Positions 2,648 through 61,864 are shown, counted from the first letter of the stretch. The stretch: DNA of 64,000 nt from Methanotrichaceae archaeon (GCA_963803145.1 CAWDLW010000020.1:1-64000); one strand, 5' to 3'. Program-made: numbers and translations. Notes: a model not told the origin generated them from the sequence alone.

Positions 2648-3286
2648 ATGAGTGTTTAAGACTCTACGTGTATTAGGGCGCTGTTGTAAAGAGCTTTCAT
2701 CAAGAAATCCTATAACAGGATCAGTAACAGTGGTCAGCACTGATTTTATCCTTTTTTAAAAAACTTTCTGCATCTGCAGGCCTCTTTTCATTTCTGATGT
2801 ATGGTTTCCCATACTTAACTTTTTTCACTACTCTTAAAATTCGCCAGCCATATTTATATGAAAAATCTATACCTCTTGTATCCCTTACATATTTTAATAC
2901 GTCTTTTATCGTCATTCCTTTGTCTTCAATTTCTTTAATAACTCTATCCCATTCATCAAGAGACATCTTTGGCTTTTTGCCATTTCTATTCTTTGGTGTC
3001 AATCCATTATAGCCATGATTATTCCATCTGCTTAACCAATATTTTATTGTCCTCTCGCCCCTTTTTAAGATATCAGCTACCTCATATACGTTTTTCCCTT
3101 CATATAAATGTATTATTGCCAATAACCGTTCCTTAATCCTTAGATCAGTCTCTTTTTTATATAATTTATCAAGGTCTATCTTTGATATATGCCTAATTAT
3201 TATAGGTTTTCTACCCATGCCTATGTATTTTCACGCATTAATTATTAAATGTATCTATAGGGCAATAAGCTCAATGATTAACTATA
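2648..3286 (-). mobile_element. Truncated IS630-family element (one end + orfA 2721..3218; most of the DDE orfB missing)
   Basis: Near-identical to 54892-55530. Terminal TATAGTTAATC (rc) ends at 3286, and homology stops abruptly at ~2648. Confidence 0.9.
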
Positions 3287-3509: not shown

Positions 3510-4340
3510 TCATGCCCTGAATTCAGAATAATTATAATCAGATGTGTTATATGCCCTTTGAAGAAAATCGCATATCTGTAATTGGGTAGGCGAAGAACCC
3601 GAGAATAATGTGACATTCCCGAGATTATATGGCCCGCTTACTCTATGGTTGTTAATGCTTTTCCCATCAAAGCTGAGGTGCAAGGTATGATTTCCATGAG
3701 CGAGTACTTCGTGATCTATCGCCCAGTCGATTTCATTGTTATTAGAATCATAGAGATATCCCATCAAATTATACTCTCCGGGCACTTTTACATATACCCC
3801 GGCATCAATAATAAGATAATCATACAGGCCATCGCCGCTCGCATCTACCATATGCTCAGTGTAGTTGCCAATAAGCTTGGCCTGCATCTGAGGCCCATTT
3901 TCTAGGAGATAATAACTTTTTGTGGCATATGCATCATCTATTTTATCAAGCAGGCCTCCACGCGCGTCGTATAAAGTCAAGTTCTTGAGATAATGCTCTC
4001 CAACTACCTTTGATCCCCGGAAATCCAACCTTACTGATTTGACCCCTAAACCCAAATAGGTCTTAGCGGTTACATTGATGCTCTCATTACGATCGGCACT
4101 ATATAGCGATCCTTTTACGGTATATTCACCGGGAGAAAGTACGATAACACCTATATTGATAGTTATTAAATCGTATAATCCATTTCTATTTGTATCTGTT
4201 CCAAAGTCGGAGTATATTTTGCTAAAATGGGCGTTTCCGCCGGTGCTTATATTTTGCTGTGCAAATACTGTTGTACAGGAAATCGTAAGGATGATAGTTA
4301 TAAATATAATAGAAAAAAGTAATCTACATTTAAGTCTCAT
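3510..4340 (-). CDS. Secreted protein with two tandem beta-rich repeats (DxxxxGLYDxLxI...PGEY...G.LY)
   Basis: Signal peptide; internal repeat DTNRNGLYDLITINIGV..PGEYTVKGSLY / DASGDGLYDYLIIDAGV..PGEYNLMGYLY; many NxS/T sequons. Confidence 0.75.
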   Translation of the reverse strand: MRLKCRLLFSIIFITIILTISCTTVFAQQNISTGGNAHFSKIYSDFGTDTNRNGLYDLITINIGVIVLSPGEYTVKGSLYSADRNESINVTAKTYLGLGVKSVRLDFRGSKVVGEHYLKNLTLYDARGGLLDKIDDAYATKSYYLLENGPQMQAKLIGNYTEHMVDASGDGLYDYLIIDAGVYVKVPGEYNLMGYLYDSNNNEIDWAIDHEVLAHGNHTLHLSFDGKSINNHRVSGPYNLGNVTLFSGSSPTQLQICDFLQRAYNTSDYNYSEFRA

Positions 4341-4856
4341 TTCCTAATCATCCGCCTTCTGTATTCACAACTCATGGAATCATCCAGTCAACCATATCAT
4401 TCATAAGTGCACTTTAGCAGCAAGGAGTCCAATACGCAATCACTGTTAGCCATATATGTGCGATTGATTACTTATAAAAAGGTTATCAAGCTTTCGATAT
4501 AAACCTATGATGTACCTGGCAACATGAGTCCTTATTAGGCCTAACTGACAGAAGAGCTGTTTCAAAATCAGTAATAGTCTCATTAAGCTTTGGATCAATC
4601 CCAGATACTATCTTAAATACTTGATGTTATATTGCCGAATCATTTAAACAGATACTGATAATCCATTGATATTTATCTGAGATTTTAGGGACTTGAACTA
4701 CCTTTGTCATGCTGAAGATAGCCCTGAGGATTCGATATATTTTAGAAAGTTTCCACCAAAAGGTTTAATACAAAGGCATCTATAGTCCCCCTTGTAATGC
4801 TAGCGGTATCTGATCTCCCCAAAAATTAAAATGTTCTTAGGAAGTGTGCCGACTAT

Positions 4857-7424
4857 ATGTTTAAAAAATTTCAATTGCTGCCTAAGAATGGCATAAATGC
4901 TAAAGCAGATGAGTTTACCAAATTAGCAAGGGATTGGATCTGCGTTATTCTTATCCTGTTTGCACTAAACGCCTTCTCCCTTAATTTAGGATATATTTCT
5001 CCCGTTTTTAGCCGTTTATTGGGCATTTTATCCCTTTTAGGAGTGCTAATTTTTTACAGTCCTGCTTATTTAAATATTCCGAGAAATAAAGAGCCTGTTT
5101 TGGGTATAATCCTAATTCTTTTCTCTCTTACGCTCCCATTTTTATCTTCACAAATCGAATATTGGCTAATCTGTCTTCCAATATTTATTTGCGGATTTGA
5201 CTTGCTCTTAAAATCTGTAAAAGTTCACGAAAATACGCTGCCGGCTCTTTCTCTGTGCAGTACAATTTATACAATTTTTTACATTTGCTACATCAACATT
5301 CCGGCCTTATGGTTAGGTATTAAATCATTATCTGAGGGCTTCTCTGGAGTTATAGGTCGGATTGTGGGAACCCAATTGAGTATTGGCCCAACCATTAGTG
5401 GAGCCTTTATTTTATTGACATTTATCCTTTGTATAATTGCATTTTTTATCTTATCTGAGAAGCAGGGACAATGGAAAACATTTATTTTTTCTATTGTAGG
5501 ATTAATATTGGTTTATGCAGTTTTTGTCGCAGCTCATGCCTTGATCTTGACGACCGGCGATGCTGCAATGGATGATCTTTATATTGCCTTTTTGATGTTT
5601 TCAATAGCATTCATATTTGTTGTTCGAGCATTCAAAATTAAGTCCATGCCTATCGGAAATTTGGCCTTCAGGAAAATTGATGGCGCGGCAGTTATCGCTA
5701 TATTTTTCTCGCTCATTTTAATATCCATTTTTCCATATATTGGTGATGGAAGCGCTGGAAAGGTGGTAATCTATGAACGAAATTGTGAAATGGGCTTTGA
5801 TCTTCCCCATTTCCCACAGGGAAATGAATCTTTTAAGACTTATAGCAGCTTTTCAGTGCGCGGCATGGGGTTATATCTGGAAAAGATGGGCTATAAAGTA
5901 GAGGATTTAAACAGTACAAATCCGCACACATTAAAAGATGCCCTAAAGGATGCAAATGTATTAATGTTAATAAATTTAAATAAATCATTCTCTTCTGATG
6001 ATTTGGATAGCATATGGAATTTTATAAAAAATGGCGGTAATCTTATCGCCTTTAGCGATCATACATCAATGTTTGCAAGCGATGAGGACTTCAAGCGGGG
6101 AAAGGATTACCTGAATGAAGTGCTTTCGCCAACAGGAATAAGGGTTAACCCGGATACCGCAGATTATGTGGTCAATCACTGGACATATGCTAATACATTT
6201 TTGCCCCATTATGTAGCTAAGGATTTAGGATTTGAGATCACTACGTCCTCAGTTGGTGCGTCGCTTAGCTTGAGCGGAAATGCAAGGCCGGTAATCATCG
6301 GACGCTATTCCTTCTCTGATAGAGCTAATGCAACTGTGCCAGGCCACCTGGGAAACAGAACTTATGATTTGGGTGAAAAGATAGGAGATCTTGTTGTAGT
6401 TGCCTCTGACACCTATGGCAAGGGCAATGTATTGGTTTTTGGGGATACATCATATATTTTCAGCTCTGAGGTGCCGCTTAGATACAAATTAGTTCTTGAT
6501 TCCATTGTGTGGCTGATGAGCCATGAGTCCGAATCTTTAGCGTTTCTTCCATGGATTGGACTGATAATACTGGGGCTTCTAGCAATGGGCTATCTATTCC
6601 GTAGTCAGCCCAACAAGAATATGGCCCTATTTTGCGCTATCATCGCTGTGGCCATAGCCCTTTCATTAGTGGTTTCCGGAAGCATAAATAACTCGCTAAT
6701 TCAAGTTCCAGAGAAAGGCGGAAAAGACACAGCATGGATAGATTATTCTCATTTAAATCAATTCAATCTGAATAACTATGAGGATGATAGCGTAGATGGA
6801 TTAATAACAAACTTATACAGGAATAATTACATGCCTCTTGTTTTAGAGAATAGAGGCGATTTTTCAGAGATATTAAATGGAGACGTATTGGTCATCATAG
6901 CTCCAAACGAAGCTTATACCCCTGAGGAGGTAACCATACTGGATAAATTCGTCCGGAATGGGGGCCTGCTAATCATAACTGCGGGGTACAGCAGCAAAGA
7001 CCCGCTTGATCCCGTGCTGAAATCGTTCAACATATCCATAGGCAGTATCCCACTTGGATCGGCGCCTTGGATCGTAGAGACACATAATGCTGGTGAAGCC
7101 GGGACTGTAACCCCTGAGAATTTAGCAAAATATTGGCACAAACCGAAATATATGGAAGCTTATCCTGTTCTGGCAACTGGAAAATATGAGCCAATAACCT
7201 GGTTGAATTATAGGGGTGTAACCTATAATCTGACCATAGCAAAGAAATTCGGCAATGGAACTATTGTGCTGATAGGAGACTCCAGGTTCTTATTAAATGA
7301 AAACCTTGAATATGCATCGGATTTGCCCGGCAAAGAGAATTTGGAACAGTATCAGCTTCAATGGCTGGGGAATATTGAGCTTTTGCGACAGATAATTTCC
7401 AAGTACGAGGGGGTAAGATTATAA
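4857..7424 (+). CDS. Polytopic membrane protein A: ~9 TM, then a GldG/IFT52/DUF4350-like domain, 2 TM, and a second such domain
   Basis: 855-aa ORF; FIKNGGNLIAFSDHT, YGKGNVLVFGDTS, FVRNGGLLII and FGNGTIVLIGDS class-I-GATase-fold motifs. Confidence 0.7.
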   Translation: MFKKFQLLPKNGINAKADEFTKLARDWICVILILFALNAFSLNLGYISPVFSRLLGILSLLGVLIFYSPAYLNIPRNKEPVLGIILILFSLTLPFLSSQIEYWLICLPIFICGFDLLLKSVKVHENTLPALSLCSTIYTIFYICYINIPALWLGIKSLSEGFSGVIGRIVGTQLSIGPTISGAFILLTFILCIIAFFILSEKQGQWKTFIFSIVGLILVYAVFVAAHALILTTGDAAMDDLYIAFLMFSIAFIFVVRAFKIKSMPIGNLAFRKIDGAAVIAIFFSLILISIFPYIGDGSAGKVVIYERNCEMGFDLPHFPQGNESFKTYSSFSVRGMGLYLEKMGYKVEDLNSTNPHTLKDALKDANVLMLINLNKSFSSDDLDSIWNFIKNGGNLIAFSDHTSMFASDEDFKRGKDYLNEVLSPTGIRVNPDTADYVVNHWTYANTFLPHYVAKDLGFEITTSSVGASLSLSGNARPVIIGRYSFSDRANATVPGHLGNRTYDLGEKIGDLVVVASDTYGKGNVLVFGDTSYIFSSEVPLRYKLVLDSIVWLMSHESESLAFLPWIGLIILGLLAMGYLFRSQPNKNMALFCAIIAVAIALSLVVSGSINNSLIQVPEKGGKDTAWIDYSHLNQFNLNNYEDDSVDGLITNLYRNNYMPLVLENRGDFSEILNGDVLVIIAPNEAYTPEEVTILDKFVRNGGLLIITAGYSSKDPLDPVLKSFNISIGSIPLGSAPWIVETHNAGEAGTVTPENLAKYWHKPKYMEAYPVLATGKYEPITWLNYRGVTYNLTIAKKFGNGTIVLIGDSRFLLNENLEYASDLPGKENLEQYQLQWLGNIELLRQIISKYEGVRL

Positions 7425-10060
7425 AGCGATTATTATGGTTATCCTTAATACCGTTATCTGCATTTTGGCTATTTGCTGTAGATATATATGGCTATACTCC
7501 TGCCCTCATGCCTGCAATAGGAATGATCCTACTTGGGATTGCAATTTCAGCCCTGGGCTTTTTAGAATTCGATATTGTTTCACACAATAAATATGCGATT
7601 GCTATTCTCCCGCTTGTATTATCCAGCTTCGTTATACCTTACCCATATAATGCGGGTCTAATCGTTGCAGCCGCGGCGTTAGTCATATCATTACTGATAC
7701 CCAAAGCAAGGCCGCTATGGTTGGGAGCACTCTTCAGTGGAGTTATCCTAATTTTACACTCTCTCACCTTATCGATATACTATATTTTCGCTCCAAGCCT
7801 ACACCAGTTGGGTTGGCTTGCATACGCAACGTCATTCTTCGCAAGCCAGGTAGGACTGCAAACAACGTCCAGCAATGGCCTGCTTTTTGTATACGCGCAG
7901 AAGAATCTGTTTCCTTTTACGATAACCCTTGAAAAATTAGGGTTTTACCCATGGATTTTAGTATTCGTTGGTGCGCTTATAATAATATTTTTAACATCCC
8001 AAAATGCTTCTTTAGCATTAAAATGGATTCTCGGCTTTACCTTTGTGAGCATAATCTATCTCTTTGCCAGATATCTATTGCTTATCTATATCTTCTTCGC
8101 AACCGATGTACCATATTATGCCGGAGACAGATTGGAGATATTCATAAATCCTTTAATATTAATTGCGAGCTTCATACCCCTAGTGCTATTGTTCCTCTGG
8201 CTGTATCCAATCCAAAGTTTTAAACTTGATTTCAGATTAGATCTCGACAGAAAGCAAGCTTTTGCACTAACACTTCTAATGGTAAGTATATTCTGTTTGA
8301 CATCTGCAGCTATCTTTCAGGATCCTGGAGTAAAAAAAGACGGCAGGATGCTGGTTGATGAGATCCACTCTCTATGGGAATTTTCCACCCTGAAATTAGA
8401 CAAGGAATGGTACGGAGAAAGCTCTACTTACAACTCATACAGCATGGTTGAGTGGCTAAATAATACATATAAAGTAAACCGAATAGTTAGTCCATCCTAT
8501 AAGAATTGGACGATAGCTGGAGCTACAAAGGTTTCGCCCGATATTGTATCCGATAAAATTACCTATGATATTCTAAAGAATTATGACATATTTATAATAA
8601 AAACTCCTTCTAACTACGATCCTGAAGAGGTTGATGCAATAGTTCGCTTTGTAAAGGAAGGAGGCGGACTTTTCCTAATAGGAGATCATACGAACTTCGG
8701 AGGCACCAGCACCAGTCTGAACCAAATATTGAATAAGTTTGGAATGGAGCTTGGATTTGATAGCGTAAACACGATGGACGGCAGGCTATACTACTATAAG
8801 AGAGGTACAATGCCCCATCCAATCGTAAAGTATATGCCTTATTTGGATTTCATGACTGGGTGCAGCATAAAAACACCCCTAAGTGGAGAGCCCGTTGTAC
8901 TCGGGTTTAATCTGGAAGGCGATCCCGGCGAATACGCTTCATCCGGTTTCTTCAGAGAAACTAGATCCAATGATCCCACGCAGGTCACAAACACCATATG
9001 GGGACTAATTAACCAGGTTGTTGCCCTGAAGTATGGAAAAGGAAGAGTAGTGGTTCTTGCAGATTCGACGATAATATCCAATTTTAGGGCCTTTTTTGGA
9101 GGCACCCCGAATCTTATAGTTGGATGTATTGAGTACCTAAACTATAGTAATTCATTCGAGAATGGAAAGCAGATTCTGCTTCTCTTGGGAATAATATTTG
9201 GTGCTTTTGCAGCATACCTCCTAAGCAAGACTATTCTAGGAGAAAAGAAGATAGTGGCCCTGGTATTAATGCTGGCCCTAGGATCTCTAGCAGTAAGCGG
9301 AGCCGTATTCCTGCTATCAACAAAGACTCAAGATACAATTCCGAGCCAGTTCTATGTGAAGAATTACACGGTATGCTTCGACGGTGAACACTCTGACACG
9401 ATTGTGAGCAAAGGTAATGAAAGCGGGAGTTACGAAACCTTTTTCATATGGACTCAGAGGGTAAACCTAACTCCTGCAATAGAAGACAATTTTGAATCGG
9501 CCATGGAAAAGGGAAGGATTTTAGTTATAATAGACCCAGTCAAGGATTTATTTGGAGCTGAGAGAGATGCGTTATTAAATTACGTTAAAGAAGGCAATTC
9601 TATCCTGCTCATGCTTGATCCTAATGGGCCAGGATCTTACTTAACGCAATCCTTCGGTATGGATACTTACTATATAGAGCCGCCATACAATGCAAGCAAC
9701 CTGACACTAGATCAAAATATAACCCAGGGACTGCCTATAAAGCCGTGGGGCCTGGCTATAACGGGCGGAAAACCCTTGATGTCCATAGGCAACAGGACTG
9801 TCATGGCTGAGGCAAATTACGGCAAAGGTAAATTTGTCCTATTCACCGACTCCCAGGCATTTAGGGATGGATTTTATGGAGAACCAGGCTATATGGGATA
9901 TTCTGGGACAGATCCGAATCTCATGAATGGAATGGGCTACAATCTAAGATCGCTATACAACTTGGAATATTATATCTTTGAGAATGTTCTGAGTGATGGA
10001 AATCGCTCTGCTGCATATTCGGATAAAAGAAATACAACTATGGTAGGGATCTTGGGATAG
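7421..10060 (+). CDS. Polytopic membrane protein B (paralog of A): exosortase-like TM region + two GldG/IFT52/DUF4350-like domains; probable ATA start
   Basis: The frame of ORF 7508..10060 is open back to ATA at 7421 (IKRLLWLSLIP...), which overlaps the upstream TAA and follows GAGGGGGT. Motifs FVKEGGGLFLIGDHTN, YGKGRVVVLADS and YGKGKFVLFTDS. Confidence 0.7.
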   Translation: MKRLLWLSLIPLSAFWLFAVDIYGYTPALMPAIGMILLGIAISALGFLEFDIVSHNKYAIAILPLVLSSFVIPYPYNAGLIVAAAALVISLLIPKARPLWLGALFSGVILILHSLTLSIYYIFAPSLHQLGWLAYATSFFASQVGLQTTSSNGLLFVYAQKNLFPFTITLEKLGFYPWILVFVGALIIIFLTSQNASLALKWILGFTFVSIIYLFARYLLLIYIFFATDVPYYAGDRLEIFINPLILIASFIPLVLLFLWLYPIQSFKLDFRLDLDRKQAFALTLLMVSIFCLTSAAIFQDPGVKKDGRMLVDEIHSLWEFSTLKLDKEWYGESSTYNSYSMVEWLNNTYKVNRIVSPSYKNWTIAGATKVSPDIVSDKITYDILKNYDIFIIKTPSNYDPEEVDAIVRFVKEGGGLFLIGDHTNFGGTSTSLNQILNKFGMELGFDSVNTMDGRLYYYKRGTMPHPIVKYMPYLDFMTGCSIKTPLSGEPVVLGFNLEGDPGEYASSGFFRETRSNDPTQVTNTIWGLINQVVALKYGKGRVVVLADSTIISNFRAFFGGTPNLIVGCIEYLNYSNSFENGKQILLLLGIIFGAFAAYLLSKTILGEKKIVALVLMLALGSLAVSGAVFLLSTKTQDTIPSQFYVKNYTVCFDGEHSDTIVSKGNESGSYETFFIWTQRVNLTPAIEDNFESAMEKGRILVIIDPVKDLFGAERDALLNYVKEGNSILLMLDPNGPGSYLTQSFGMDTYYIEPPYNASNLTLDQNITQGLPIKPWGLAITGGKPLMSIGNRTVMAEANYGKGKFVLFTDSQAFRDGFYGEPGYMGYSGTDPNLMNGMGYNLRSLYNLEYYIFENVLSDGNRSAAYSDKRNTTMVGILG

Positions 10061-10222
10061 GGTGAATATAGCAGGAAGCTTAAAATTGGGCAGTCTACCC
10101 GTATTGAGTTGTTGAGCCCAAAATGATCTAGGATCTAATCGATAAAATAGTTTGAGGAGGAGATTAGATTGCCCATTTGCGGTAAATCCATCCTCCTTCG
10201 CTCAGCGCCTGCATAGGTCCGA

Positions 10223-11209
10223 TTAATGCAGTCCTCCCATATTGTTATGTGGGCAACACTCCTGTAGGTTATTATTGCAAGTATGCCGACAGGTCGATAC
10301 ACAAGTACTTCTACATGTGTTAAAGCAAGTTTGTTGACAAGTTTGCCAGCAGGTGGACTGACTACCACATGTTGAATCACAGGTTTGTCTACAGGTAACG
10401 CAGGTGGCGTGATTACATGTGTTTACTAGACATGTATTCGCGCATGTGGGACCACGACATGTTTTCGAACATGTGCTTGCGCAAGTTGCTGAGCATGATC
10501 CTACGCAGGTTTGCACATTACCGCATGTGTTCGCGCAGGTATTTGCGCAGGTCGAATAGCAGGTATCCGCACAGGTTGACCAGCATGTAGCCTGGGCGCC
10601 GCATGTTCCTCCGCAGGTAGACTTGCAGGTTTCGCATGTTGGCTTCGAGTTACATGTATCCTGGCAGGTGCCCTGGCATTGGGTATAAGAGCCACTGCAT
10701 GTTTTCTGCAATGTATTATGGCAGAATCTTCCACATGTAGCTGCGCAGGTTGGCACAGCGCCGCAAGTGCTCCAACAGGTATCTTGACATGTTACCCAGC
10801 AGGTTGGCTGAGTGCCGCAGGTTCCTTGGCAGGTATTCTTACAGGTCAAGCAGGTAGCCTTTTGATTGCACGTGTCTTGACATGTGCCGACACATATAGT
10901 TCTCTGACCTCCGCACGTTTTTTGAGACGTTTGTACATTTGCGGCCATAACGTGCAAAACCTGGTTACTGCCGCCATCAGAAGCGCAAGGAGTTCCTTCT
11001 GGACAAGAGCTTTGGACATTTAGGCTCTGCGTGCTGATGCTATCATAGCTCCACCCATCCGAGGAACCTCCAGTAGATACCCCCATATCTCCTAAAGCCT
11101 GGTCCATCCTGACTTGGTAGAGCGGCGACCCGTCAGTTGGACCCGATGCACTTGCAACCGTGCATGCAAACAATAGGAGAGCTATAGGAATTATATATCG
11201 CATTTTCAC
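10223..11209 (-). CDS. Secreted Cys/Thr-rich protein with ~44 Thr-Cys (TCxx) repeats
   Basis: GGAGG RBS before GTG; signal peptide MKMRYIIPIALLLFACTVASA; ~53 Cys counted by eye; repeats use varied synonymous codons. Confidence 0.85.
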   Translation of the reverse strand: MKMRYIIPIALLLFACTVASASGPTDGSPLYQVRMDQALGDMGVSTGGSSDGWSYDSISTQSLNVQSSCPEGTPCASDGGSNQVLHVMAANVQTSQKTCGGQRTICVGTCQDTCNQKATCLTCKNTCQGTCGTQPTCWVTCQDTCWSTCGAVPTCAATCGRFCHNTLQKTCSGSYTQCQGTCQDTCNSKPTCETCKSTCGGTCGAQATCWSTCADTCYSTCANTCANTCGNVQTCVGSCSATCASTCSKTCRGPTCANTCLVNTCNHATCVTCRQTCDSTCGSQSTCWQTCQQTCFNTCRSTCVSTCRHTCNNNLQECCPHNNMGGLH

Positions 11210-54891: not shown

Positions 54892-55978
54892 TATAGTTAA
54901 TCATTGAGCTTATTGCCCTATAGATACATTTAATAATTAATGCGTGAAAATACATAGGCATGGGTAGAAAACCTATAATAATTAGGCATATATCAAAGAT
55001 AGACCTTGATAAATTATATAAAAAAGAGACTGATCTAAGGATTAAGGAACGGTTATTGGCAATAATACATTTATATGAAGGGAAAAACGTATATGAGGTA
55101 GCTGATATTTTAAAAAGGGGCGAGAGGACAATAAAATATTGGTTAAGCAGATGGAATAATCAAGGCTATAATGGATTGACACCAAAGAATAGAAATGGCA
55201 AAAAGCCAAAGATGTCTCTTGATGAATGGGATAGAGTTATTAAAGAAATTGAAGACAAAGGAATGACGATAAAAGACGTATTAAAATATGTAAGGGATAC
55301 AAGAGGTATAGATTTTTCATATAAATATGGCTGGCGAATTTTAAGAGTAGTGAAAAAAGTTAAGTATGGGAAACCATACATCAGAAATGAAAAGAGGCCT
55401 GCAGATGCAGAAAGTTTTTTAAAAAAGGATAAAATCAGTGCTGACCACTGTTACTGATCCTGTTATAGGATTTCTTGATGAAAGCTCTTTACAACAGCGC
55501 CCTAATACACGTAGAGTCTTAAACACTCATTTAATAAATTATAAACCTGGAAAGGTTAGATCAAGAACTATTTTTGGATTTATAGCATTAAATGGCAATG
55601 ATGAGGTTATGGTTTCCAACTCCTCTAAGAAGGAAGCGTTGATGGCATTTGCTCAAAATATAAGAAATAATAATATTATGAGGCCAATTTGTATACTTTT
55701 AGATAATGCTAGAATTCATTTGGCCAAGAAATTTAGAAAACTAGCTGAGGAAATCGATATTCACTTAATTTATAATATCCCCTATTCACCAGATTTGAAT
55801 CCTATAGAATTCGGTTGGAAGGATTTCAAAAGAGAGATCGCCAAATACACTGATTTCGATGAAGCTATTATAGCTAGCCAAGATTGCGCTTTAGAAATAT
55901 TTTATTCCAAAAAGGATGGATATTCAAAGTCCTGGGTGGAGCGATTTCTTAGTGCAAAAAGCTAGGAGATTAACTATA
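54892..55978 (+). mobile_element. IS630-family element; orfA 54960..55457 and orfB 55438..55965 joined by a -1 frameshift
   Basis: Ends TATAGTTAATC / GATTAACTATA (TA target); slippery TTTTTTAAAAAAG at 55415-55427; FLDES, LDNARIH and YSPDLNPIE DDE motifs. Confidence 0.95.
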
Positions 55979-57735: not shown

Positions 57736-58647
57736 ATGGATAGAGTAAGCCGATCATGGTACGAACTTGCATTTGAGCGAGATTTTCTAAAGAAAACCGG
57801 CAATTCGTTCCAAGATTTCTTCTGCGAAATTATGGAAAAATGCCATCCTGGAGATTTTCAACGAATTCGTCCTTGGGGAAAATTCGGAGATAGAAAAAAT
57901 GATGGCTACTTGTCATCGGCAAGAATGCTGTTCCAAATCTATGCACCTAATGAAATTCGCCAAGCAGATACATTAGCGAAAATAAATGAGGATTTCTATG
58001 GTGCACTACCTTATTGGGAAAAATATTTTGACTCTTGGGTTTTTACACATAATTCTCGCCAAGGGCTCAGTCCAGACGTATTCAAGAGATTATTGGAACT
58101 TAAGACTGAATATACTTATTTAGAGTTCCCTTGCTGGGGTTTTGAAGAATTAAGGATAAAAGTCTTCACACTATCTGAGAGGGATATTGCATCGATTCTG
58201 GGCCTTGCACCAACAAACCAGGATCTGCTTAATGTAGGATTCTCAGAACTAAAACTCGTGCTCGGTGCCATATCTCAACAAGAACCTCTATTCGATCAAG
58301 ATATAAGTTCAATATCCAAAGAGAAGCTTACTTACAATGCTTTATCACATAGCGTGGAAGAATTGATTAAATTGGGTGCTGTTCGATCCAACCTTGTTAA
58401 GCGATTTTTTAGAGAATATAACGATCCTGAATATGGCGATAAAATTGCGCGAACATTTAGAGAAAAGTATATTGAATTGAAAAAGGAAAATAACTCCCCT
58501 GATATTATTTTTTTGAAGCTTCAGGAATTCGCTGGCGGCACAAAGCGTGGCCCACCTAAGTATGAGGCTGCTGTTTTAGCGATATTGTCATATCTCTTTC
58601 AGAGTTGCGATATCTTTGAGCATCCTGCACCTAGAGGACCACTATGA
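57736..58647 (+). CDS. ABC-three-component (Lamassu-family) effector: restriction-endonuclease-like domain + CTD
   Basis: FQDFF..IM, GDRKNDG and FQIYAP nuclease core; C-terminal YLFQSCDIFE. Confidence 0.8.
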   Translation: MDRVSRSWYELAFERDFLKKTGNSFQDFFCEIMEKCHPGDFQRIRPWGKFGDRKNDGYLSSARMLFQIYAPNEIRQADTLAKINEDFYGALPYWEKYFDSWVFTHNSRQGLSPDVFKRLLELKTEYTYLEFPCWGFEELRIKVFTLSERDIASILGLAPTNQDLLNVGFSELKLVLGAISQQEPLFDQDISSISKEKLTYNALSHSVEELIKLGAVRSNLVKRFFREYNDPEYGDKIARTFREKYIELKKENNSPDIIFLKLQEFAGGTKRGPPKYEAAVLAILSYLFQSCDIFEHPAPRGPL

Positions 58648-58880
58648 TTCTGCCTACTAAGCATTCCGGGTATGATCGCTCACTTTTGGTTCTTGGCGCG
58701 GAAATCTTGAATATCTTAAGTGTACCCAAAACGTTATCTCGTACATGGGAAGAACTCAAACGAAATAATATTAATAAAAACTACTTAACCTATGAGTGGT
58801 TTATCTTATCTTTAGACTTATTATATCTCCTAAATGCCATAGAATTTGAAAATGGATTGATTAGGAAGGTATATTTATGA
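58644..58880 (+). CDS. ABC-3C middle component (LmuC-like)
   Basis: MILPTKH...SLL.LGA.IL...LW...SLDLLYLL; overlaps both neighbours. Confidence 0.8.
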   Translation: MILPTKHSGYDRSLLVLGAEILNILSVPKTLSRTWEELKRNNINKNYLTYEWFILSLDLLYLLNAIEFENGLIRKVYL

Positions 58881-61864
58881 TTTATAAAATTTTTAGCGAT
58901 TTACCTAGTTTTAAGGAAATTGATTTTCATCCAGGGTTAAATCTACTTATAGCTGATAAAAGCCCTGGAGCAACTGATCAGCAGACTAGAAACCGCGCTG
59001 GAAAAACTAGCATTATTGAGATAATTCATTTTTTATTAGGGTCCGATTGTGGGCCGGATTCCATCTTTAGATCTGAGAAACTTATAGGTTTCTCTTTTAG
59101 TATGGAATTTGATCTTGGGCACGCTATAACAATTGTAGAAAGGTCAGGGACGCGACCTAATCGGATTTTAGTAAAAACAGATAACTTTGATGCATGGCCA
59201 ATTAAGCCTGCAAAACAAAAGATAACAACTATTTCCAATTCAGAATGGAGGAACATATTAGGGTCTATTATTTTTGGGCTAAACGAAGCTGAAGATCAGA
59301 ATTTAGGAAAAAAATTTGCGCCGAGATTTAGAGCTCTTTTCTCATATTTTGCTCGTCGAGAAAGAAAAGGCGCATTTAACTCCCCGATGAAGCAATCTGA
59401 TATGCAGCAATTATGGGATCAGCAGGTAGCGCTCTCATATCTACTTGATCTAGATTGGGTTATAGCCCAGAGTTGGCAGACTGTAAGAGAACGTGAAAAG
59501 ACATTAAGGGAGTTAAGAAAGGCAGTTGGTGAAGGCGTCTTCGGAGAAGCTATCGGTACTGTCGCCAGTCTTAGAACCGAATTGACAGTAGCTGAAGAGA
59601 AAATACGACGCATAAGGCAAGAACTAAATGAGTTTAAGGTACTTCCACAATATCATGAGCTCGAAACTGAGGCTTCTAATTTAAGCCAACAATTAGGTAA
59701 ACTCTCAGATGAAAATATTATTGATCGAGAATTAATTGATAACATCGAATCATCCCTAGAACAAGAGCAACCACCTGCATTGGATGATTTATACCGTCTT
59801 TATGAAGAGGCAGGCGTATTATTGACTGATAGGATTAAGCTTCATTTCGATGACCTAAGCAAATTTCATGAATCAATAATCGAAAATAGAAAATTCTATC
59901 TATCATCTGAAATTGAGGAAGCTAACCGACGTATAAGTTCCAGAGATCATAATATGATATCTCTGTCTCGTCGGTGGTCCGAAATAATGGCACTACTCAA
60001 TTCTCGGTTGTGTATGTGACCTATTGAAATGGGATCCTCCAAGTCATTAACTCCTTCATAGTCCAAATATGGTCGGTAATCAATTCAACCATCGCAGGCG
60101 TTCGAGGGATCCATTTTTTAGGATTCAGAGCGAATCCCACTTCTTCCATGTCAAGGTTTATCTCAATTTTTAAAGAATCATGCGGCTTAACGAAGTTGTA
60201 CCAAGCTTGGAAAAAGTCTATTGCGCCGGTATGAATTTGCCTATCTTTACTAAAGTTCATAGACTCACGTATAAACCTGGCCAGATAATTCCTGAAAGTG
60301 AGATTCATTCGTTCGACGTAGGATGTCTGGATATGTTCTTTCGATGTTGGGCAAAGCAGTTCAAGCACATCTTTCGGGTCACCATATACAATCCGTTCAA
60401 ATGTGTTAACCACTTCATCATTCTTTTTATTTTTCACAATTTGAGCATATTTAAGGTCAGGAGGAGGAACAAGTATAGGATTTGGTTTTCTGCCTAGTCC
60501 TTTGTATTCAGGCGTCTCCTTGACACCGTAGACTTCAAGGAGGGCATTGGAAAATGGATCCCAATCATCGGAAACGAATACCGGAAGAGGTGTGCCTGTC
60601 GCCCGTCTATGTTCTAAGTCACTAAATAAGGCAGTTGCATCTTCTATAGTTCGGCCACCTTCATGATGGCAGATTAGTAACCTTGATTCAGCATTTATTG
60701 CTGTCAGACTATATACGTCACCAACGTCTTTTGAGTCATAGCTACTTACATTTTTTTGTTTTTTTACAAAATGACCATATTTCATCTATCTGCACTTGTG
60801 TAAGATGAAGATGGTTCAGGAAGTAATCATTGACCTCTTTGCAATGATCCGCTGCCCTTTTGAGCCATCGGCAGATTGTATTTTTATCATGACCTGTAGA
60901 TCTTGCAACACCACGAATACTGCCTTTTTCTACCAATTGGGCCAGGACATCTAAGACTTCCTCATCTGATGTGCTTAAACCGAAAAATATTGTTCCGCGA
61001 GTCTCGCTGAAACAATGACCACATGTTCTACACTTCAAGAGCGCACGGTTGTTCTTTCCATAGTGATCTTTTATCACTATGTTGCCTTTATCGTTTATGC
61101 CATAATCCTGGCAGCCTTCATGATGGCACCAGTAATCGGACAATGTAATATCAGACATTTTTGATACATCCCTTTTAAAGAATGTATCATTATAAACATA
61201 TAACTATTTCATCGGAACGCATACACGACCCAATTCTCATGGAGCATTAGATCAATATAGCAAAATGCAATCCAGATTATCAAAACTCGAAGCGGAAACA
61301 GAAGTCTTGCGCCAAAGATTCTCAGCTGCAGAACAGTTAGAGGGCAAGAAAACGGAATTGGATATAGAGAGAAAGCGATTGCTCGTAAGGCTTATGCAGG
61401 ATTACCAAGAAAGAAAATCTCAACTAAGCCATTCTATTATAATTTTTCAAGAAATATCTAGTTCACTCTATGAGAGTGCTGGCAATTTGACCGTTTCTGC
61501 ATCAAATAACGGCCCTATGTTCGAAGTAAAAATACAAGGGAAAGAGAGTAAGGGCATTAATAATATGCAAATATTCTGCTTTGACATTATGTTGATGGAA
61601 TTATGTTCAGAAAAAGATATAGGTCCTGGCTTCCTAGTACACGATAGCCATTTGTTTGATGGTGTTGATGAGCGTCAGATAGCCAAAGCCCTTCAACTTG
61701 GCGCTTCCACTGCAAGAGAATTTGGATTTCAGTACATAGTTACGATGAATTCTGATGACCTACCCAGAGAGCTCCCTGCTGAATTTGATCTAAAGGATTA
61801 CATTTTGCCAATACGTTTAACAGATGCTACAGAAACTGGCGGTTTATTTGGATTGATATTTTAG
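58877..61864 (+). pseudogene. ABC-3C/Lamassu SMC-like ABC ATPase (DUF2326-type), split by an IS1
   Basis: Walker A RNRAGKTS and coiled coil; the C-half has GKESKG, FCFD and FLVHDSHLFDGVDERQ. Removing 60006-61238 restores LLNS|HGALDQY in frame (584 aa). Confidence 0.9.
60006..61230 (-). mobile_element. IS1-family insertion sequence (orfs 60742..61158 and 60021..60785)
   Basis: TIRs GGTTGTGTATGTG / CGCATACACGACC; 8-bp TSD CAATTCTC (59998-60005, 61231-61238); Zn-ribbon + HTH, QIDEIWSF, SDDW and TSYVERMN motifs. Confidence 0.93.

Follow-up and report, generated by a model that had tools for sequence, protein, structure and literature searches.

The families TIGR04114 and TIGR04115 are Cxxx-repeat precursors of peptides that are made on ribosomes and modified after translation (RiPPs), and the beetle antifreeze protein TmAFP is a Thr-Cys beta-helix. 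Exosortases possess a Cys-Arg-His catalytic triad and act on clients with C-terminal signals, as outlined in 10.1101/2023.06.07.544157 and PMC6098224. In Methanococcus voltae, the radical-SAM enzyme CrpC acts on the Cys-rich protein CrpA, and the outline given in PMC13692751 is that of a system different from the one described here. The arCOG01314/DUF4350 proteins, in the part of PMC5898192 that treats them, occur with genes for vWA proteins and MoxR (AAA+) ATPases and have a different architecture. This study was concerned with a locus at positions 3,510 to 11,209 of a 64,000-nucleotide stretch of DNA from a Methanotrichaceae archaeon (GCA_963803145.1, CAWDLW010000020.1:1-64000), the whole of which is referred to as the window. 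The locus encodes two membrane proteins, designated subunits A and B, and a secreted Cys-rich protein, designated TC328, which is a client of the pair in the terms used below. A preliminary description of this DNA had proposed four open reading frames (ORFs) here, including a protein with approximately 44 Thr-Cys (TC) dipeptides, and all four were confirmed at their positions.

The pair and its tagged clients constitute a conserved three-part system, which is real and has no match to any described family. The sequences show the architecture and topology signal of A and B, the co-inheritance of the pair with its clients, the conservation of a tag on these clients and the variability of the cores that follow it. 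The preliminary description missed the tag as well as the many clients that have only 2-7 Cys. No description of the trio was found in a full-text literature search, whose coverage excluded most subscription journals, and neither a name nor a function is given to the A/B family in the libraries and papers that were searched. From sequence evidence, A/B is probably, though by no means firmly, a dedicated leader-guided maturase that acts on client thiols outside the membrane.

The client tag and its inheritance with the pair

The neighbours of A/B pairs were compared at 20 genome loci and, out of 253 metagenome loci, at the best 80. They have in common a motif, [ST]PL[FY]xxR, which follows the client signal peptide, is itself followed by a probable helix and precedes very different cores. 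This conserved tag is new here. Clustering of A at 80% identity resulted in 63 clusters, and B adjoins A in 57 of them. The 31 clusters with at least 1.5 kb on both flanks were assessable, the other 32 having too little flank. Of these 31, 22 have a tagged ORF no more than 3 kb from the pair, while the background of the tag pattern is 7.7 ORFs per Mb in the source genome, or approximately 0.05 per locus. Because this pattern was set after the loci had been seen, leave-lineage-out tests were run. A profile of 31 tags from outside Methanotrichaceae ranked both TC proteins of the source genome first among 11,412 ORFs, with E values of 5.5e-5 and 6.9e-5 and the next ORF at 0.047. In the other direction, a profile of six Methanotrichaceae tags was run on 1,569 ORFs of distant loci, and 24 of its 25 top matches bear the motif. 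When clusters were formed at 45%, a tagged or TC/SC (Ser-Cys)-rich neighbour was present in 10 of 14 lineages.

Among 105 Methanotrichaceae genomes, pairs of the kind in the window, designated type I, were found in 17, the tag in 18 and both in 15. The two genomes with the pair only are 78-80% complete. Three have the tag only; one of these is 84% complete, one is 77% complete and one has a weak match. The tag was found in none of the six genomes of this family with only a type II pair, a second kind that is treated below. In the Thermoplasmatota class that contains genome G222 (101 sampled genomes), B was found in 15, the tag in 18 and both in 14, and three of the four tag-only genomes have weak matches over the signal part only. 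Some of the training tags were taken from genomes included in these counts. Up to nine tagged genes are present per Thermoplasmatota genome. In genome G224, the TC gene is missing between B and ogt (locus L003) and is kept on another contig. The loci, the genome counts and the leave-lineage-out tests thus support the inheritance of Cys-rich secreted proteins with A/B across unrelated taxa, which the preliminary description had put forward as a check. That description had also inferred a surface structure that might be sheath-like. A major sheath role is unlikely and was rejected, since only 17 of the 105 family genomes contain the pair.

The source genome has three A/B pairs, all with Cys-rich secreted neighbours, and its second type I pair (C43) is located beside a 471-aa tagged TC protein. 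It contains 23 TC/SC-rich ORFs in all, and many untagged secreted Cys-rich repeat proteins were observed (C8, C12, C26, C18, C49 and C51). These 23 ORFs would fit a neighbourhood produced by chance or hitch-hiking, as would the loci without a client, such as L105 and L111, two assessable lineages at 45% clustering with no tagged or TC/SC-rich neighbour. However, the enrichment over background, the co-occurrence in two phyla and the leave-lineage-out tests largely refute that explanation, which is scarcely credible.

The family is found in Methanotrichaceae, Thermoplasmatota and bacteria. In the genome collection, the relatives with names belong to Methanotrichaceae, at up to 86% identity, apart from two Thermoplasmatota, and bacterial membership was seen from neighbours and names (TonB in L120; a Tectomicrobia homologue). 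The A profile is matched at E<=1e-30 by 1,271 clusters (50% identity), a count that takes in B-like and partial proteins. Matches were present in three genomes of a 301-genome phylum sample and, with a single-protein query, in one of 66 genomes of the family of G173. No relatives were found in the plasmids or viral contigs searched.

TC328 (328 aa) begins with a hydrophobic N-terminus and consists of a signal peptide, the tag, a spacer and a Cys/Thr core (residues 98-319) of about three degenerate 72-aa units with Cys mostly at every fourth residue. It contains 53 Cys and 54 Thr, and 31 of its 52 Cys spacings equal four. The core contains all 44 TC dipeptides, while 2000 shuffles of it gave 10.8 on average and never more than 19. 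The L001 orthologue keeps every one of the 51 aligned Cys and 42 of 43 Thr before Cys, with synonymous codon changes at 24 kept Cys and 17 kept Thr before Cys, and just 63 of 130 other core residues are kept. TC328 is a real gene under selection. Its tag has 14 of 17 residues in common with this orthologue. TC328 had no match in Pfam or NCBIfam and no usable match in ESM Atlas. Like most clients, it has no transmembrane (TM) helix at its C-terminal end.

Beyond the tag, Cys is present in 58 of 60 distinct clients, and 47% of client Cys have a Thr before them. The cores include 4-periodic TC, 6-periodic TCxGxx and Cys-Pro (CP)-rich repeats, short tails with 2-7 Cys and a 222-aa helix form. In the last of these, a Thermoplasmatota client, 2-4 Cys flank a C-terminal hydrophobic helix; this type, with a helical spacer, was observed at L108:14992-15660 and at L115, L122, L130, L144 and L150. 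Cores reach more than 700 aa, and fusions to surface domains occur: clients may bear cohesin, dockerin, FlgD or SdrD domains (FlgD/cohesin in L098), and the bacterial client of L142 bears a type IX secretion system (T9SS) sorting domain (46 bits, cut-off 27). A 1,300-aa bacterial client (L137:3460-7362) has two tag copies, 95 Cys (6-periodic TC) and C-terminal globular domains. Many Methanothrix TC clients (e.g. L021:13068-14483) end in a globular domain of ~150 aa with no Pfam match, which is weakly similar to a stand-alone secreted protein beside a type II pair (L022:5219-6034).

The 388 neighbour ORFs of 56 loci were also analyzed. In this set, clients alone recur across distant lineages, and the other recurring neighbour genes represent local synteny. 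Radical-SAM, lanthipeptide and other enzyme families are not among the recurrent neighbours, which extends what the preliminary description had noted for the window, and neither are ABC ATPase or permease, vWA or MoxR genes. These results bear on the explanation that the client is a cytoplasmic RiPP precursor, that its radical-SAM or lanthipeptide enzyme is encoded elsewhere and that A/B handles the finished product. The ratio of Thr to Cys in TC328, approximately 1:1, is consistent with it, and for M. voltae PMC13692751 describes a large Cys-rich protein that is cross-linked through thioethers by a radical-SAM enzyme. In addition, 1.4 kb separate a relocated TC gene of genome G002 from a peptide-modifying radical-SAM gene of the TIGR04083 family. 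However, the source genome contains the TIGR04083 gene twice (C2:2976-4130 and C8:561447-562601) with no TC gene beside either copy, so the adjacency in G002 is incidental. These two copies may reflect duplication or assembly redundancy. The TC gene of G002 is relocated away from the A/B pair and, together with part of its upstream region, was observed between two copies of a duplicated segment (L257:6460-9144). The TIGR04083 link was rejected on these grounds. All clients carry export signals, no such enzyme recurs in the 56 loci, and 11 tagged clients from the loci gave no NCBIfam precursor match, where biased composition may mask weak ones. A cytoplasmic RiPP precursor is therefore highly improbable.

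Subunits A and B

Subunits A and B are paralogous (BLASTP identity of 22% over 512 aa; profile-profile Probab of 99.9 for the first GIFT domain, GIFT1) and share one plan, which is nine TM helices, GIFT1, two TM helices and a second GIFT domain (GIFT2). This agrees with the earlier account of a coupled paralogous membrane pair in the order TM, soluble, two TM, soluble, and with its assignment of GIFT domains, of which there are two in A and two in B by Pfam and fold matches. In A, GIFT1 spans residues ~298-556 and GIFT2 ~615-850. Both subunits match Pfam ABC_transp_aux, DUF4350 and IFT52_GIFT. In their AlphaFold2 models (pLDDT 87), a helical domain in the membrane precedes the first GIFT domain, and a TM hairpin lies between this and the second. 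The top fold matches are IFT52, OST48/Wbp1 and the glutamine amidotransferase (GATase)-like domain of site-1 protease, with A matching IFT52 (Z 20.4, rmsd 2.5, 202 aligned) and OST48 (Z 17.4), and B matching IFT52 (Z 20.4, rmsd 2.4, 203 aligned). The TM domains gave no fold match in whole-chain searches that were filled by GIFT domains and that say little on the GT-C membrane fold of the glycosyltransferases AglB/STT3 and PMT. Alternating Lys/Arg-rich loops in 100 A and 37 B sequences indicate an N-in orientation with nine TM helices, and this positive-inside pattern places both GIFT domains outside the membrane.

B is the more conserved subunit of the pair. Residues H316, W319, E320, H423, C481 and D548 of GIFT1, along with R217 in the TM domain, are invariant in 37 of 37 B sequences, and Cys481 is the only invariant Cys in the pair. 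A has no conserved Cys, and no column of its alignment (100 rows) reaches 25% Cys. This conservation suggests that B is likely the active subunit and that A would be a mostly non-catalytic partner. Homologues of the A or B type with C-terminal CarboxypepD_reg/SdrD_B extensions were also observed (P0125 and P0294). The precomputed domain PF27016, which is present on many homologues, may name part of the A/B-type proteins.

The pair had been called exosortase-like, which holds weakly for B and fails for A. None of the exosortase hidden Markov models (HMMs; PF09721, TIGR04178 and subfamily models) matched A, B, 29 A homologues or 37 B homologues, and TIGR04178 matches solely a separate gene on C23 in the source genome (G000), which is an intact archaeosortase. 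In hhalign comparisons, the B TM domain aligned in register with archaeosortase B (ArtB)/XrtH-type profiles over 93-98 columns, with scores of 27.6-29.1 (E ~0.001-0.002, Probab 13-32) against a maximum of 17.9 for 30 block shuffles. Its score with ArtA-only rows was not above shuffles, and the A TM domain scored 17 (shuffle maximum 14.9). The top ESM Atlas matches are exosortase clusters with a score of 0.81, which is a lead only. The alignment places the exosortase catalytic Cys at B Lys172 and the conserved Arg at B Arg217. Position 172 is Lys in 31, Ala in three, Thr in two and Ser in one of the 37 B sequences. The triad Arg is present in all 37, neither A nor the B-like protein of type II showed it, and the catalytic His is absent. 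With Lys at the catalytic Cys position, B is not an exosortase; its sequence suggests that it probably derives from one and is without the nucleophile.

One alternative is that A/B is a protease or transpeptidase, which cuts away the leader, both N-terminal anchor and tag, or anchors the client and so frees or lipid-anchors the core, as an N-terminal counterpart of exosortase systems. The in-register alignment above shuffles and the ESM Atlas lead are in keeping with this, as are the GIFT fold, which is common to glutamine amidotransferases and amidohydrolases, and the service of many tagged clients by one enzyme. However, every B sequence has Lys, Ala, Thr or Ser where the catalytic Cys would be, A has no such Cys and the His is absent. 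In addition, one bacterial client comes with a sorting domain of the T9SS already, and the source genome has its own intact archaeosortase elsewhere. A role as protease or transpeptidase is thus quite unlikely.

The GIFT domains bear on another alternative, in which A/B is a non-enzymatic platform, a receptor or a GldG-like transporter accessory and the client is a metal-scavenging or adhesive surface element. The closest folds, IFT52 and OST48, are scaffolds, and weak GldG matches were found in 33 of 37 B sequences, far below cut-off (TIGR03521, 26 bits versus 390). The cohesin, dockerin, FlgD and SdrD domains that clients may bear suit this explanation, and the Cys density suits metal binding. 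However, B has many invariant polar residues, and the recurrent neighbours of the pair include no ABC ATPase or permease. Many clients have 2-7 Cys only, in some cases flanking a hydrophobic helix, and so fit metal scavenging poorly. We consider a platform, receptor or accessory unlikely.

Type II pairs have a similar setting. The type II pair of the source genome (L022, G000:C20:144144-152276; 23% identical, ~698 aa each) is flanked by two untagged secreted Cys-Pro-Thr (CPT)-repeat proteins. All nine type II loci include a C-terminally anchored third gene, and six have a CPT-rich neighbour, while one contig ends early and two loci have none. Type II B keeps DExHSxWE, (D/E)HT, DST and the TM Lys. 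Thioredoxin/ResA or CcdA genes adjoin the pair in three separate loci. For example, a ResA-like gene directly follows B in L091/L092, and a thioredoxin-CcdA fusion is close by in L061. In the third, a same-strand run (L248:1849-10787) encodes a CPT-rich protein, the third gene, A-like and B-like proteins, a thioredoxin with a sorting-signal-like tail and CcdA, and then continues with an intact archaeosortase and an XrtH-associated-like protein.

Proposed maturation outside the membrane

In the maturase mechanism that we favour, the client would be exported through the N-terminal hydrophobic signal seen in its sequence. The [ST]PL[FY]xxR helix, which is conserved and co-inherited with the pair, would serve as the recognition tag for A/B. 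A and B would associate, bind this tag and act on the core, so that the variable Cys/Thr core would be processed after tag recognition. B would work through the polar cluster of GIFT1 and Cys481, and through Lys172 and Arg217 in its sortase-derived membrane domain. Client thiols were taken as the target since Cys-rich exported partners are present in both types of pair. The logic would resemble that of RiPPs, with a constant leader, a hypervariable core and one maturase for many clients, yet would operate after export; leader and variable core are co-inherited with the pair, as in RiPP systems. The preliminary description had also proposed export or anchoring by A/B. An export or final-anchoring role is doubtful, because the pair is an inner-membrane machine and the client of L142 has its own T9SS signal; on this one locus, a maturation step is likelier.

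The likeliest single chemistry is the handling of disulfides. Their formation or shuffling could fold the core into a Cys-braced rod or a surface polymer, which is put forward tentatively. Covalent transfer of a lipid or a lipid-linked group to Cys or Thr is more doubtful. An equally doubtful proposal is that A/B represents a new class of extracytoplasmic leader-directed modification enzyme, in which Lys172 and Arg217 would hold a lipid-phosphate donor and the His/Asp/Cys cluster of B would lipidate, glycosylate or cross-link Thr-Cys units. If this were true, RiPP-style chemistry would occur outside the membrane in archaea and many bacterial phyla, and would yield libraries of surface peptides and Cys-braced polymers.

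Several points weigh against a maturase acting on client thiols. First, there is no CxxC and no conserved Cys in the TM domain of A or B, thus no obvious electron relay, and redox neighbours are present in three loci only. Secondly, C481 is Asn in the type II B-like protein, and type II clients are without the tag. Third, the conserved motifs DExH, GDH and DS(T) are found in part in each of the four GIFT domains and may thus be structural rather than catalytic, and GIFT domains described before, for example in IFT52 and OST48, are not known to be catalytic. Fourth, 32 of 58 clients have an odd number of Cys, and contig ends truncate some of them. Lastly, the genetic evidence has its own limits: the pattern test gives no tagged neighbour for nine of the 31 assessable clusters, the leave-lineage-out tests address the profile and not the pattern used in that cluster count, and the co-occurrence counts include related genomes that are not independent.

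Locus layout and comparison with known systems

Table 1. Features identified at the locus, in window coordinates.
Feature	Position	Strand	Basis
C276, secreted 276-aa protein	3510-4340	-	ORF; Pfam DUF4785_3rd above cut-off
Subunit A, 855 aa	4857-7424	+	ORF; Pfam; AlphaFold2; fold matches; conserved columns
Subunit B, ~879 aa from ATA (850 aa from ATG 7508)	7421-10060	+	ORF, conserved start
Client TC328	10223-11209	-	ORF; orthologue in L001
Tag (leader) of TC328, residues 28-44	11078-11128	-	Alignment; leave-lineage-out profiles
IS630 5' fragment, boundary only, no relation to the system	2648-3286	-	Library matches; multicopy element

B most likely starts at ATA 7421, which overlaps the stop of A (ATAA) and gives B its length in Table 1; ATA is kept in L001 and L003, and ATGA is present at other loci. 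The site at 7421-7424 would thus be a non-canonical start (ATA) that is conserved in an archaeon. The block was described as AT-rich, which applies to C276, A and B (GC content 0.39-0.41, genome 0.454) and not to the TC gene (0.495). It is syntenic in the congeners L001 and L003 and is thus not a recent island; recent horizontal acquisition was ruled out on this basis. The truncated IS630 of the preliminary description, near C276, consists of 639 bp from the 5' part of a multicopy element. IS630 appears highly active, with a two-ORF copy at 54892-55965 and more than 20 near-identical genome matches besides this fragment.

C276 had been described as a secreted repeat protein and a part of the system. 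It is secreted, but BLAST self-comparison revealed no repeat, and both of its halves match one and the same paralogue, which allows two divergent repeats at most. Paralogues of C276 are present elsewhere in the genome, away from A/B pairs. Since no more than four loci (the window, L001, L003 and the type II locus L059) have a C276-type gene next to the pair, C276 was rejected as a core part and is a locally linked passenger. Elsewhere in the window, a three-gene run at 57736-61864 may resemble ABC-three-component conflict systems, and a transposase pair inserted at 60021-61158 interrupts its long ORF.

If exported Cys-rich proteins are directed by an N-terminal tag to a membrane machine of their own, this would be a new principle of protein sorting or maturation. 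Such routing could account for the way in which strict anaerobes assemble, outside the cell, proteins that contain dozens of cysteines, and the tag provides a handle for experiments and a means to annotate many orphan secreted proteins.

Several known systems resemble parts of this one. GldG (TIGR03521), IFT52, OST48/Wbp1 and arCOG01314/DUF4350 have the GIFT fold (Z 17-20) and are extracytoplasmic and membrane-tethered, but have one GIFT domain and one or two TM helices. DsbA/DsbB, DsbC/DsbD and ResA/CcdA also handle multi-Cys proteins outside the cytoplasm, and ResA-like or CcdA-like genes are present at the three loci above. However, A/B has no thioredoxin fold or CxxC and is client-specific through the tag. 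TmAFP has Thr-Cys every six residues, as do some clients (L134, L137), whereas TC328 is mostly 4-periodic, and this comparison is of client sequences and not of folds. The lipidation enzymes AliA and AliB, presented as Lgt-like and not exosortase-like in the relevant parts of PMC13631571 and PMC12462473, are a precedent for a paralog pair only.

The exosortase systems (XrtA/PEP-CTERM, ArtA/PGF-CTERM, ArtB and XrtH) also combine a multi-TM protein with a short signal on many exported clients, and the B TM domain aligns weakly in register with theirs and keeps the Arg. They differ in their catalytic Cys and His and in a C-terminal signal of motif, TM helix and basic tail, whereas this system has an N-terminal signal, a paralog pair, four GIFT domains and no family HMM match. 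RiPP systems with Cys-rich precursors likewise have a constant N-terminal leader, a hypervariable Cys/Thr-rich core and several precursors per maturase. Here, in contrast, the clients have export signals, the cognate proteins face outward and there is no radical-SAM, LanM or YcaO partner. The system thus appears to work like a RiPP leader and core, or like a sortase and its sorting signal, and is a member of neither.

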